64,000 nt of DNA from Candidatus Collierbacteria bacterium. Its GTDB lineage: Bacteria > Patescibacteriota > Microgenomatia > UBA1400 > JACPES01. Shown one piece after another: positions 27,001 through 45,000 of this stretch (position 1 is its first letter; each line of letters starts with the position of its first letter). The stretch lies in assembly GCA_016183365.1 (NCBI GenBank), contig JACPES010000003.1, positions 409,154-473,153 on the forward strand, in the 5' to 3' direction. The position numbers were made by a program.

Positions 27001-30000
27001 CAGGATAATTCAAGCTCAATGGCAAAAGCCGGATCGGTTTCTGGAGCCGGAAGTTTATCAAACCGCGGCGAAGTTGGTTTTGGAGACCGATAAAAGCCAG
27101 CCGGTATTATTGGTCAATGGTTCGGAGCTGGCGTACGTTTTATCTGACAGATTACCTCCTAAGCCGTGGTTGACGCAGTTTCCGTGGTTTTTGGAATTGC
27201 CGGGATTTCAGGAAAAACTGATAGATAAATTCAAACAGCAAAATCTGAAGCAAGTGTACCGGTTCCCATATCAAAACGAAGGGGAATTTATCCCCGGATC
27301 CTATCGACCGGAAAAGTTGCTGGAATATATTAACTCTATTACCAATGATGAAACTTTTTAATTATTTTCAGGCAAAGCCTGATCCTGCTCTGCAGGAAAA
27401 TAATTGAAGTATTAAAAAATATGAAACTTTGGCAGTTGGGGATTATTATGGTCGCGGCGGCGGTTGTGTTTGCTCCGACTCTTGGGACTTATTTTTCCCA
27501 AGACGATTGGGTATTTTTATCCCACACTTATAAGCAACCGTTTGTTAACATATTCCGCCATTATTCGGAAACTTTCTATCGGCCGGTCGGCCAACAGCTA
27601 TTCTTTTGGATTGGAGGCAGGATTTTCGGTTTAGAGGCCAGCGGATTTCATTTGCTCGGGCTTCTTGTACATCTTTTGAATATTATTCTGTTATGGAAAC
27701 TATTTCGATATTTCCCTGCGGAGCAGGGTCCCGCTTCGCGGGATAAAATTTTGAGCAATACAAAATTATTTCTTCTATTATTTTATGCGGTTAATCCGGC
27801 CCATTTCGTGGCTTTAAATTGGTTGACTCAAGTTGATATTGAGATTGCGGTGAGCTTGGCGTTGGTTTCGACTTATATATTAAGGCCAGGCCTTTACGGA
27901 AAAGGCCAGGCCTTTTTATTACAAATTTGTGGAGTCGTATTATATTTACTCGGAGTTTTGTCCCATGAAATAGTGGCCTTTTTGCCGGTGGTTTGGTGGA
28001 TTTGGTTTAAACAGAAAAGAACTGCTGTTCTTGGTTTGATTGCCGGTTTATCATTAATCGGCGCCAAATTTCTGGCAAATCCGTTTTCATCAAACGCCGA
28101 TTACACGATTTCAATTAACATCTTGGGAATTATTTCTTCCTTAAAATGGTATGGGTTGCGAGCCTTATTTCTTCCTGAAGGAATCAGGAATTTTCCGGTT
28201 TGGCTGGCGGCAATAGGCTTGGTTCCAGCGATTTTTTTAATGTTGATATTTCGGCAGAAATTAGTCGACGGGGTAGAAATTTACCTCTTGGGAGTATTAC
28301 CGGTGTTGGGATTTGGCGGCCACCTGTTGGCGGCCTACGCGGTTTTTGGAATTGCGTTGATGGTTATCGAGTTGGGAAGGGTTAATGTCATTCCCGCCCC
28401 CGGTCAGAGCCGAGGGCAGGCTCCAGCAGGAATATATTTAAATAGATTCCGGGTCCCGCCTTCGCTTACCGTTTGCCTTCAGAAACTATTCGTTTACGGC
28501 TCACGGAGCGCTTTTAGGCGGGCAGGCAAACCCGGAATGACGGTATTTTTAGCTTCGGTAGTTATTTTAATGGCAACTGCGGGATTTATTTATTTTAATT
28601 ATTTAAATCATTGGAGTACAACCAGGGGAATTATTTCTCAAAGATTGACTGAAGATTATCTTGTTTCCGATTTAAAGATTAGGGAAGAAATATCGGCGCG
28701 GGCAAATAATTTTAAGGAAAATCCGGAAATATATTTTTCGTCAATGTCGGGTAAACAGTTTGAAGTGTTGGATCTTGGTTTACGCCGGGGAATTTTTGAC
28801 AAGCTGTTTTACCGTGGAAATGATTTAACCACTCAATTTTTGCCTGACGCTTTATTTTTCAAAGACAGCATTTTGGCCGGAAAATTTCCAATATGGAATC
28901 AGTGGATTATGGCTGGATTGCCGTACTTTTTAGACCCGCAAAATTTTTTGTGGTACCCGCCGAATTATTTTTTATTACTTCTGCCGATAGAGTTGGGGTT
29001 CTTAATTTTATTGATTGGTCATCTGGTTTTTGCCGGTTTATTTGTGGGTAAAATATCAGATATTTTACAGAAGGGTAACTGGATAGGGTGGTTGGGAGCG
29101 GGGATGTTTGTATTTTCGCCAAAGATAATTAGTCATATTGAAGAAGGAAATTGGAGTTTGGTGATTGCCGCTAGTTGGTTGCCGTTTTTATATTGGGCGC
29201 TAAAAAACAAACGATTAAATTGGACGATAATTTCTCTATCGGCGATTATTATTAATAATTTAAACATTGGATATTATGCGGCATTATTTGTCATGCTTTA
29301 TTTTTTGACACATTTGAGTCAGAAAAGGAGTCTCCTTATTGAGGCGAAGAGACTTATTAAAGTACTAATTGTTACGGTTGCCTTGACGATTCCAAGATGG
29401 TTGCCTTTGGCGCTATTCGGAAATCAAACTGTGAGGGTGAATTTGCAGGAATCCCCGTTGCCGTTTTGGAGTTGGACCAAGATTTTCAAAAGCTTATTTT
29501 TCCCATTGGCCGGAGGGCATCCTGTATTGCAGAACGAGGAGATATTGTATGTTGGGATTTTACCCATAATCCTTGGAATAATCTTTATATATATCTTTAT
29601 ATATCAAAAAGGAGTCTCCTTTCTGAAATTAAAAGGTGCAAGAGAGTTAATATTTTGGCTAGTTTGGTTGGGATTTATTTCGTTGGTTGCCGTTAATCTT
29701 AAAACCCCACTTTTTTATTTAACAAAATTACTTCCCGGATTTTCCCTGTTGCGGATTACCACCAGACCGTGGACTTTTGTGTCGTTGGCACAAGCGATAT
29801 TCGTGTCTTTAATGATTAAGGGGTTGGCGAAACGGTCTAAATTATTAGCCGGCGCGTTGGCGATTGTCATACTGTTAGAATACGCGTATTTTGATTACGG
29901 CATTTTTTCCCGGAGACAAATGGTTAAAAATGAAGTCCCATACAGGTTTTATCAAACAATGGCGTCAGCAGGTAATAAAGTTCGGGCTTATTGCACCACC

Positions 30001-42000: not shown

Positions 42001-45000
42001 AGGTTAGCATTGTAGCCAATGGAATCGACGTGGAGTATTTCAAGAATACACCTATAAGAAGGCCAAAGAGTCCAACCGTCTTGTTTGTCGGAAATTATAA
42101 ATGGTTGCCAAACGTTGACGCCGCCAAATATATCGCTTATGAAATTTGGCCTTCAATTCATCGGCAGATTCCGAACGCCGAATTAAAGATAGTTGGACGA
42201 GACGCGACTAATGAAATTTTAAAACTTAAACGTATTCCGGGAGTGAATGTGATAGGAGAAGTTGGAGATATCCGCGAGGCTCTGGGCAGCGCCCATGTGA
42301 TGCTGGCTCCAATCAGAAACGGCAGAGGGACAAGATATAAAATTTTGGAAGCTATGGCTGCCGGACTGCCGGTGGTGTCAACATCTTTGGGAATTGAAGG
42401 CATCAGAGCTAAAGACGGGGTTAATGCTTTGATCAGGGATTCTAAAGAAGAGCTGGTTAGGGCCACGGTTGAGTTATTGAAAAATCCGGCCTTGACCAAA
42501 AAATTAGCGATTAATGGGAAAAGGCTGGTGGATAATAATTTTAATTGGGAAAAAATATCCGGCGATTTAGACGTGGTCTATCAGAAACTTGGCCGACTCC
42601 ATGAAAACTAAATTATCGATTATCATTGTAAGTTACAACACTTCCGGGTTACTTAAGCAATGTTTGTCTGCGGTTCTTGCTTCGAGCGGCTTAAAGCCAA
42701 AAGAATTGGAAATTATAGTAGTAGATAACGGAAGCAATGATGGTAGTCAAGAAGTAGTAAATAAATTCAGAATTCAGAATTCAGAATTAAGAATTGAGTT
42801 AATAGAAAACAAGGAGAATTTGGGGTTTGCGGTCGGAAATAATATCGGGATCAATAATTCCGACGGAAAATTTTTATTATTGTTGAATTCCGATACTTTG
42901 ATTGAAACGGACACGTTGATAACGATATTAAAAGCGATGGAAAATGATTCGTCGATCGGAGCGGCCACTTGTTTGTTGCAAACGACTGACGGCAAGATTG
43001 ACCCGGCTTCTCACCGGGGATTTCCCACTCTCTGGAATGCCGGCAGTTATTTTTTAGGATTTGAGAAATTATTTCCCGCCAGCCGGATCTTTGGAGGTTA
43101 CCATCAAGGGTGGAAAAATTTTAAAGTTCCGCATGAAGTTGATTGCATCTCCGGAGCTTTTTTTATGGTTTCCCGGGAGGTTATTGACAGGGTTGGCTTA
43201 TTGGATGAAAGATTTTTTATGTACGGCGAAGATATTGACTGGTGTTTCCGGATAAAACAAGCAGGGTTTAAAATACTTTTTCATCCCGGGGTAAAAACTT
43301 TACACTTAAAGAAACAATCAGGCCGGGACAGCCGAACTGACCAGACGGCCAAAAAGAATGCCAGGCGGAAATTTGTAGAAACTATGGCGCAATTTTATTC
43401 CAAACACTATTTGTCTAAATATCCGGATCTCGTTTCCAAAATAGTTTTAGGCTTATTGTGGTTAATAAAAATTTTTATATGATAGCAGTTTCATGCATAT
43501 TAGCTAGTTGGCAGAATGCACAAAGCGGACGGTCTGGCGGAGCCAGATCCTGCTTTGCAGGACAGCTAGCTTACTTCGCAAATTTGCCAACTTTGCTGGT
43601 GGACATGCACGAAACTCTTATATGAAAAAGATTGTTATAGATGCCAGATTATCGGGGCTTAAACATGCCGGGATCGGAAGATATACTCAAATGCTTTGTG
43701 AGCATTTAAACGATTTACGATTTACCTGCCCTCAGACGCTACGCGCCAAGTGTTGCAGGCTGGCGATTTACGATTTACGAATGATTTCTCCCGACATTCG
43801 TCACTATACGTTGGCAGAGCAAATTAAAATGCCGATTATTTTGGCAAAAGAGAAACCTGACTTAGCCCATTTCCCCCATTTTAATGTTCCGCTTTTATAT
43901 AACTCTCCTTTCGTAGTGACGATTCACGATTTACTCTGGCACGAACAGGTGGGGACAACGGCGACTACTTTGCCGGTTTGGATTTACTGGCTGAAATATT
44001 TTGCGTACAGATTGGTTTTAAGACACGCGGTTTTAAGTTCAAGGACTATTATTGTACCGTCCAATTGGGTGAAGAAAAAGATTGTGGAGAGATTTCCGGA
44101 AGTATCAGGGAAAATTCAGGTTATATACGAAGGTGTTGTTCAATCTTTTATTACAGATGGCCGATCGGCAGTCGGTAATGAAACTTTGGCTAAATATAAT
44201 TTGCATCCAAAACAATATTTAATCTACACAGGATCTCTATATCCACATAAAAATGTTGAACCCGTATTAAATGTTGTACAACATTTAATAAATTTGAAGT
44301 TTGTAGTTTGTTGTTCCAGAAGCATGTTCTGGGAAAGGTTCAAAAAGTATATCGAGAGAAAAGGGTTGAAAGATAGGGTTGTTTTGGCCGGATTTGTTCC
44401 GGACGATGAGTTGGCGATTTTATACAAAAATGCTTTGGCTTTTGTGTTTCCTTCAAACTCGGAAGGGTTCGGTTTGCCCGGTCTCGAGGCTATGGCCGCC
44501 GAATGTCCGGTAATCAGCTCAAACGCCGGAGCCTTGCCGGAGATTTACGGTGATGCGGCGTTGTACTTTGATCCAAAATCAGATATAGATTTGAGAATAG
44601 GGATAGAGAAGGTAAGGAAAGACAAAAGATACAGAGAAGAATTGATTAGAAAAGGAAAAGAACGGGCAAAAAAATTTACATGGGAGAAGATGGCAAAAGA
44701 AACAATGGAGGTATATGCGGGTTGCTTTGGTATACGACAGGGTAAATAAGTTTGGAGGGGCGGAGAGGGTGTTGACGGCCTTACATGAGATTTGGCCGGA
44801 GGCGCCGCTTTTTACCGGCGTTTATGATTCCGAAGTGGCTGGCTGGGCTAAGGGTTGGGATATAAGAACTTCGTTTTTGCAATCTTTTCCTTTTGCCAAA
44901 AAATGGCACGAGGGTTTCGGATGGATGATGCCATTGGCTTTTGAATCATTTGATTTTTCTGAGTTTGACGTAATTATTTCAGTCACTTCCGAAGCCGCCA

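Follow-up and report, generated by a model that had tools for sequence, protein, structure and literature searches.

A double-hairpin palindromic repeat at two gene junctions of a Collierbacteria glycan-biosynthesis cluster is probably inserted DNA and not a shared regulatory element

The repetitive extragenic palindromic (REP) sequences of proteobacteria, known also from BIMEs and REPINs, are short GC-rich imperfect palindromes that occur in many dispersed copies, often paired and commonly between the genes of operons. They are non-autonomous, conserve structure over sequence, fold as single strands and are mobilised by RAYT, an IS200/IS605-like HUH transposase. Correia elements of Neisseria, ERIC, and the SPRITE, BOX and RUP elements of pneumococcus are small non-autonomous inverted-repeat elements at gene junctions, sometimes nested, and the target duplication of Correia elements is TA. 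Genomes of the candidate phyla radiation (CPR) are often described as poor in mobile elements. [quoted passage not shown] Casposases make 14-15-bp target duplications (PMC5137440). Here we describe a double-hairpin repeat in a 64-kb stretch of DNA (the window) from a groundwater bacterium, which protein names and contig titles place in Candidatus Collierbacteria-like Microgenomates (CPR). Two 53-nt copies, c1 and c2 (Table 1), stand at gene junctions in a large co-directional glycan-biosynthesis cluster that is followed by dcw genes. An earlier sequence-based reading, hereafter the original prediction, took them for a cis-regulatory element shared by the two downstream genes. We consider it probable that the motif is instead one copy of a palindromic DNA repeat that is nested and non-autonomous, moved as DNA by a putative enzyme acting in trans.

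In a repeat search of the window, c1 and c2 were recovered as a pair with 83% identity in direct register, so the close match between the two predicted segments was borne out. Compared as reverse complements they were 92% identical, a better fit than the direct register. Both run from TTAATTATTTT through a 13-nt hairpin, AT and a second 13-nt hairpin to AAAATAATTGAAGT, the right end being an arm complementary to the left AT-rich arm plus GAAGT. A 30-nt degenerate pattern for the right half of the motif matched c1 and c2 only, with 0 matches expected in 100 shuffles. All four hairpins (4/4) have a perfect 5-bp stem and a 3-nt loop, with GATC at the dyad, and hairpin 2 of c2, read on the other strand, is identical to hairpin 1 of c1. 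Paired differences had been proposed to preserve the hairpins. The hairpins are indeed perfect, and they covary at the level of the family, but the four compensatory pairs of the direct register shrank to one (C–G versus T–A), plus one loop change, in the inverted register and are therefore partly an effect of orientation. The predicted RNA fold of both copies is a Y in which a 12-bp AU stem closes two GC hairpins (c1, -21 kcal/mol, z -5.1; c2, -23.8 kcal/mol, z -4.9). In both, an AT-rich palindrome (ACTTCAATTATTT / AAATAATTGAAGT) surrounds the GC core, which lies exactly in its middle; this palindrome is a low-copy repeat in its own right.

Both copies split gene pairs that overlap in other genomes. 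The first, c1, overlaps the stop codon TAA (27359-27361) of the upstream open reading frame (ORF) 26075-27361 and ends 10 nt before ATG 27421 of a gene for a 970-aa membrane protein (27421-30333). The second, c2, lies wholly within the 3′ end of a GT4 ORF (35724-36896, stop codon TGA 36894-36896), which reads through it into the C-terminal tail ..NYFPAKRDQALPENN*; ATG 36906, the start of a hexapeptide acetyltransferase gene, follows 6 nt behind the end of c2. The original prediction had put these distances at 7-12 bp. The junctions were compared in ten syntenic loci (L037-L047) from Candidatus Collierbacteria-like relatives, reached via homologues of the GT4 and the 970-aa protein. At the c1 junction, L044, L046 and L047 have a 4-nt ATGA overlap without a spacer, L039 and L045 have the perfect 26-nt palindrome ACTTCAATTATTTAAATAATTGAAGT without the core, and the window and L043 have arms plus core. 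At the c2 junction, five loci are empty (L038, L039, L041, L042 and L046), the GT4 ending in ..YER* with an 11-nt overlap with the acetyltransferase start, two have only an AT palindrome (L045, 26 nt; L037, 17 nt), the window and L043 again have arms plus core, and L044 has a different palindrome. Cores thus occupy 2/7 of the orthologous junctions at c1 and 2/10 at c2, and the native junctions are gene overlaps. The core of c2 is inverted between the window and L043.

Both sites also retain what look like traces of the native junction. The direct repeat ATGAAACTTT (Table 1) corresponds to a single ..CAATGAAATATTGG.. in L044, L046 and L047 and, to judge from this comparison, may have arisen as a target duplication in which the native junction with its ATGA overlap was doubled. 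Behind c2, the bases of the ancestral GT4 C-terminus, KSIYER*, persist out of frame; ancestrally they formed the 11-nt overlap with the acetyltransferase start. The GT4 of L037, 90% identical, reads ..RLLQLLKSIYER* through the bases of this relic, and the tails of GT4 homologues end in ..YER.

A partial third copy had been predicted at 43535-43567, before another GT4 gene. This proved to be a genuine core, c43, but with other surroundings: it has no AT arms, lies inside a different, 93-nt imperfect palindrome (43505-43597) in a 140-nt spacer, and is 59 nt from the GT4 start codon ATG 43622. At this site the genes overlap without a spacer in L041 and L043, and L042 has a spacer without the core. 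Cores absent from the window occur in L037 (at 823) and L043 (at 9426), and core density in the syntenic stretches ranges from 0 in 11-15 kb (L039, L042, L045 and L046) to 3 in 21 kb (L043). The patchy filled and empty orthologous sites, together with this variable copy density, argue for an insertional repeat family and not a conserved leader. The different palindrome at the GT4/acetyltransferase junction of L044 belongs to the family AAGGAGTCTCCT...AGGAGACTCCTT (L044, 19585-19625), which is also found in the window at 7931-7967 and 29323-29359. Since the junction holds this family in L044 and c2 in the window, it appears to be a recurrent landing site for different palindromes.

The conserved feature of the core is two independent self-complementary hairpins. 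Over about 30 nt the core reads T, C-N-N-G-C NNN G-C-N-N-G, AT, the same hairpin pattern again and A. It therefore consists of two self-complementary 13-mers around a central GATC, which is invariant in most copies and replaced by GTC in the 27711 copy and the L047 copy. When 20 distinct cores from public contigs were aligned, 98.2% of the cells paired, no change was one-sided, and the four stem positions left free by the search pattern all covaried (4/4). In a set of 29 distinct cores with 290 stem cells, 282 cells were Watson–Crick, 2 were G–T and 6 were mismatched. Five fully paired stem variants were seen (CCCGC, CCGGC, CCTGC, CAGGC and CTGGC), and the stem of hairpin 2 was the reverse complement of that of hairpin 1 in only 9/29 elements. 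The hairpins are under structural constraint, and covariation analysis, the check proposed with the original prediction, gave a clear positive answer at the level of the family. The lack of any preference for G–T pairs suggests that the constraint acts on DNA, or on both strands, and not on a single RNA strand, and the self-complementarity of each hairpin fits single-strand folding at the DNA level.

A covariance model of the core (R1) gave eight copies in the window at E<1e-3. Two are intergenic (c1 and c43), one lies at an ORF 3′ end (c2), and five lie in frame inside ORFs (21566, 27711, 31537, 22829 and 45753). These five are translated straight through, far from any start codon, and within genes the family is translated in all three reading frames. 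The in-ORF copies are absent from most orthologues. That at 27711 has no counterpart in P0130 or in the L039, L043 and L045 orthologues, is present in P0124 and P0127, and occurs as a variant in P0122. The 31537 copy lies in a loop of its GT2 gene with AATTTTC 7-mer repeats on either side, and the L039 orthologue has AT-rich repeats only at this site. Two extended copies, 22814-22895 and 45741-45822, share a 78-nt unit, GTGAAGTTT...AAACTTCAC. They are 98% complementary to each other and lie in two unrelated genes, which points to recent copying. The L044 orthologue has a plain core at the 22814 site; the 45741 copy is absent from the L043 and L042 orthologues, and L041 has a different insert there. 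Within the 78-nt unit, the loop of hairpin 2 holds another palindrome, of 21 nt, with a CTTCGC repeat on either side, so that one palindrome is nested in another. The composite copies have inverted arms of 9-15 nt.

Table 1. Copies of the double-hairpin repeat in the window and the traces of the native junctions beside c1 and c2
Feature	Coordinates	Strand	Description
Copy c1	27358..27410	.	R1 covariance model 58 bits, E 3e-35
c1, left arm	27358-27368		Degenerate AT arm
c1, hairpin 1	27369-27381		CAGGC-AAA-GCCTG
c1, hairpin 2	27384-27396		CCTGC-TCT-GCAGG
c1, right arm	27397-27410		AAAATAATTGAAGT
Direct repeat ATGAAACTTT	27348..27357	+	Again at 27421-27430 (start of the 970-aa gene); brackets c1 and a short spacer
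Copy c2	36847..36899	.	R1 covariance model 59.7 bits
c2, left arm	36847-36857		
c2, hairpin 1	36858-36870		CCCGC-AAA-GCGGG
c2, hairpin 2	36873-36885		CAGGC-TTT-GCCTG
c2, right arm	36886-36899		
KSIYER* relic	36896..36916	+	AAG TCT ATA TAT GAA AGA TAA, ancestral GT4 C-terminus
Third core c43	43533..43562	.	CTGGC-GGA-GCCAG AT CCTGC-TTT-GCAGG; 36.7 bits, E 6e-20
Family copy	21566..21595	.	In frame in GT2 gene 21254-22000, peptide SRGSGSGSAG; 29 bits, E 9e-15
Family copy	27711..27747	.	In frame in the 970-aa membrane-protein gene, peptide ..YFPAEQGPASRDKILS..; 38 bits
Family copy	31537..31599	.	Extended second hairpin; in frame in GT2 gene ending 32297 (..FFPQSRIPLRPVPDGTGLRG..); 23.8 bits
Extended family copy	22814..22895	-	In frame in the 510-aa membrane-protein gene 22017-23549
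Extended family copy	45741..45822	+	In frame in the 3′-terminal part of GT4 gene 44715-45914 (VKFRPAERGPASPCTRRYGASQDKLH)

Beyond the window, species-representative genomes and JGI metagenomes were scanned with the pattern TTTTC..GC...GC..GATC..GC...GC..GAAAA. The core was found with unrelated flanks in metagenome-assembled genomes (MAGs) of Collierbacteria, Amesbacteria and Saccharibacteria, in a small number of further MAGs and in some 20 metagenome contigs, together with a few obvious chance matches in GC-rich coding DNA. Viral contigs gave chance matches only, in GC-rich or unrelated coding DNA, so there is no indication of a phage source. The setting of the core is always AT-rich repetitive DNA, of two kinds: either the exact centre of an AT palindrome (c1, c2, L012 and L043) or a position between direct repeats of 7-mers (31537, L019, L020, L037 and L041). 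Several copies stand at or just after the 3′ ends of ORFs (c1, c2, L014, L018, L023, L024 and L026).

Compared with the described classes, the core family is not a demonstrated member of the REP/REPIN, MITE or RPE classes. Its hairpins keep their shape while the bases vary, as in REP and REPIN. However, it has two tandem self-complementary 13-mers and not a single long hairpin of two inverted REPs, it showed no conserved head of the GTAG type, it resides in a CPR host, most copies in the window are intragenic and translated instead of extragenic, and no RAYT gene was found in the window. It resembles RPEs in its five in-frame copies that orthologues lack. RPEs, in contrast, are about 100-150 bp long with a peptide-coding consensus, whereas the units here measure 30-78 nt, are read in three frames and are nested in AT palindromes or 7-mer arrays; size and host make homology to RPE families unlikely, and the resemblance would be functional only. 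With MITEs the family shares inverted repeats, small size, a lack of coding capacity, several copies, and empty as well as filled orthologous sites. Correia, ERIC, SPRITE, BOX and RUP elements are nevertheless 100-200 bp long with defined terminal inverted repeats, a fixed target duplication and a recognisable parent insertion sequence, whereas the core here is two hairpins only, with inconsistent flanking repeats and no known parent element. A likeness to casposon or Cas1-type integration is suggested, as a lead only, by exact 14-15-nt repeats at three loci and by a unit of about spacer size, but those flanking repeats are 7-mer pairs, c1, c2 and L012 are without them, and the window has no Cas1. 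In the literature searched we found no description of such repeats in CPR/Patescibacteria, and the family is apparently an undescribed and unusual variant of the palindromic repeat.

If the motif is a non-autonomous repeat of this kind, the unit would spread as DNA, via the hairpins of single strands. A trans-acting enzyme that reads hairpin shape and not sequence would probably move it, as do RAYT or IS200/IS605-type enzymes for REP, and its preferred landing places would be the tips of AT-rich palindromes or the inside of AT-rich 7-mer arrays. The proximity to start codons would arise because a packed operon offers few sites that tolerate insertion without harm, its gene junctions among them, and if the Y fold affects translational coupling or the stability of the mRNA, it would do so as a side effect. 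The copies c1 and c2 are most likely insertional (selfish) DNA and not a switch built for the two genes. A Pfam search of 39 window ORFs gave no transposase, integrase, Cas1 or HUH domain, and the lack of an enzyme encoded in cis in the window fits a non-autonomous element. Direct repeats of at least 7 nt flank 7/30 loci compared to 5/193 shuffled pairings, a difference that is confounded by the 7-mer arrays. In L019, L020 and L037 the flanks are exact direct repeats of 14-15 nt, arranged as repeat, T, core and the same repeat.

Several points weigh against an enzymatically inserted repeat. The scan of 39 window ORFs turned up no mobilising enzyme, and the census of cores covers only the window and about 150 kb of relatives. 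Each of the 14-15-nt repeats consists of two copies of a 7-mer and so may be a pre-existing array and not a target duplication, and at c1, c2 and L012 the core has inverted instead of direct flanks. The arms-only sites could reflect loss of the core and not the state before insertion. Overall identity between L043 and the window is about 74%, yet L043 has arms plus core at both junctions; its c1 shows one mismatch over the 53-nt motif, and 70-nt windows around c1 reach up to 97% identity, in the top 1%, an island that is compatible with selection on the sequence. Equally high islands are present in plain coding DNA (26326-26518 versus L043 and 30192-30402 versus L044), and short recombination tracts among relatives that co-occur are therefore an adequate alternative to selection on c1. 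These two tracts are 94-100% identical between genomes that are otherwise 74-78% identical, which suggests recent recombination between related Collierbacteria populations. By gene identity the relatives fall into three clades without a resolved order, over which the core is patchily distributed.

The regulatory reading of c1 and c2 would make them a dedicated cis-regulatory RNA, an intercistronic Y fold that is bound by a factor or masks a ribosome site and so co-regulates the 970-aa protein and the acetyltransferase. Its folds are stable and non-random (z about -5), its hairpins covary, and L043, despite its distance, holds arms plus core at both sites with c1 almost unchanged. The two sites also change together, both being full in the window and L043 and both arms-only in L045. 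However, the core is missing at the c1 site in five relatives and at the c2 site in most, where the genes mostly overlap, and 5/8 of the window copies lie in the middle of ORFs. The inversion of the c2 core between the window and L043 means that strand-specific RNA features are not kept, G–U is not enriched among the non-Watson–Crick cells (2/8), and the copies have no fixed position or orientation relative to start codons. The Rfam-like search suggested with the original prediction returned no family for the motif: Rfam gave 0 matches over the window at the gathering score, and a permissive search around c1 and c2 gave chance-level matches only (E 0.14-0.58, far below gathering). No promoter-like site was found on the elements in a scan around c1 and c2. 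Taken together, we regard this RNA as quite improbable, and the claim of a shared cis-regulatory element is not supported; dispersed palindrome copies without a preference for start codons, which the original prediction had itself named as the contrary outcome, are essentially what the data at hand contain. A looser role in mRNA, as a REP-like exapted element, would have copies at 3′ ends block 3′-to-5′ exonucleases or weakly attenuate transcription, and so set the ratio of upstream to downstream expression in the glycan operon. The many copies at or just past ORF 3′ ends and the stable hairpins agree with this, as does the known effect of REP and other MITE-like repeats on transcript stability and processing (PMC10969869). 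Yet most window copies are mid-gene, a terminator scan gave no terminator-like site at c1 or c2, and on either strand the hairpins are followed by AAAATAATT, an A-rich tract and not the U-tract of an intrinsic terminator, and we therefore think such a role unlikely.

Palindromes might also grow and shrink with no transposase at all, by errors of replication and repair such as template switching at hairpin tips, slippage of 7-mers, central deletion, and gene conversion between copies or related strains. The exactly central position of the core in the 26-nt palindrome would suit such a process, as would the 21-nt palindrome nested with its CTTCGC repeat inside a hairpin loop, the roughly 30 period-7 arrays in 64 kb, and the short tracts of 94-100% identity that point to recombination. 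Errors of this kind should extend local sequence, though, and not place one GC-rich consensus (C..GC...GC..G AT C..GC...GC..G) in unrelated contexts across phylum-level CPR lineages, and for that reason they are an improbable source of the core. Least probable of all, and in our view barely credible, is a binding site in duplex DNA, either adjacent palindromic operators or a GATC-centred site of the methylation or partition type for a dimeric protein. The 13-mers are perfect dyads, strictly Watson–Crick, with a GATC centre that is invariant in most copies, but such a site needs conserved bases, whereas stem positions 2 and 3 vary freely while pairing is kept (five stem types), the centre is GTC in some copies (27711; L047), and copies lie inside ORFs. 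GATC itself is unremarkable in frequency in the window (observed/expected 0.79, like other 4-mer palindromes), and on the same ratio neither a depletion nor an excess of GATC points to methylation or restriction.

The window is rich in other repeats. About 30 period-7 tandem arrays of 4-5 copies each (~28-34 nt, close to the length of the core) are spread over genes and spacers with different units, among them TTGAGCG, TTCAACG, CATCAAC, AAACTCG and AATTCAG; examples are 10403-10435, 10836-10864, 35305-35332, 37655-37685, 42764-42795 and 45279-45310. Within genes they form hypervariable loops that differ between orthologues (EFRIKNPEFRIKE versus ELKVKSEKLKV). At 43710-43780, in the GT4 gene 43622-44749 downstream of c43, a different GC-rich segment of 38 nt is enclosed, in frame (..NDLRFTCPQTLRAKCCRLAIYDLR..), by two copies of CGATTTA to its left and two to its right, and L043 has AT-rich 7-mer repeats only at this site. 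This arrangement of two 7-mers, a GC insert and two 7-mers matches the layout of the double-hairpin core. Spacers made of an array and its reverse-complement array (9012-9081, 13703-13789, 16682-16749, 17132-17262, 34543-34620 and 56119-56183; for example ATCCGAAT four times followed by three ATTCGGAT-like units) form long AT-rich palindromes, and those at 13747, 34543 and 56119 are mutually related.

Further palindrome families were seen as well. One of them (..GGAATATATTTAAATAGATTCC..) lies at 28410-28460 in the 970-aa gene, where it is translated as AGIYLNRFRV, and has relatives in the window at 17727-17777, 53912-53962 and 47647-47678. It is flanked by in-frame extras (APGQSRGQ; PPSLTVCLQKLFVYGSRSAFRRAG) that are missing from the L039 orthologue, so the insertions appear to be nested. 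Another consists of AAGGCC-N-GGCCTT hairpin pairs about 20 nt apart (27882-27917, 33896-33931, 52557-52592 and also 30567). One pair is inside the 970-aa ORF (..GKGQAFL..) and the rest stand at the ends of genes; T-runs come after some of them, with a terminator-like match at 27889-27907. In GT4 homologues (P0004-P0021), corresponding loop positions hold in-frame segments that vary from genome to genome, such as RLPRSDKSGARNDV, EYLKARPCRGKAGPYQ and ILRQTQDKLTSRND, and these look like translated palindromic repeats of further families. Other genes of the window encode RecO, an aminoacyl-tRNA synthetase and a HEPN/nucleotidyltransferase pair; the last, at 62315-63009 at the end of the window, has a HEPN-domain gene beside a minimal nucleotidyltransferase gene and resembles a toxin-antitoxin module.

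A wider picture can be offered only tentatively. Mobile double-hairpin units of about 30 nt in Collierbacteria-group CPR, and probably in other Patescibacteria, might home to the tips of AT palindromes and to 7-mer arrays, nest in one another and be translated in protein loops. A shape-reading enzyme would insert and excise them, possibly with staggered cuts of about 14 nt, and the period-7 arrays and the hypervariable glycosyltransferase loops would arise from many rounds of this, with c1 and c2 as the tip of a genome-wide diversification of surface-glycan enzymes.

For annotation, recognising the repeat prevents a dispersed element from entering the record as a riboregulator and accounts for odd protein tails (..NYFPAKRDQALPENN*), split gene overlaps and inserts of 10-26 residues in glycosyltransferases and membrane proteins. 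A tiny palindromic family that varies between close relatives remodels the junctions and protein loops of a surface-glycan cluster. If an enzyme does mobilise the core, few known mobile DNA units would be as small, and it would be a new case of structure-specific, and not sequence-specific, DNA recognition.

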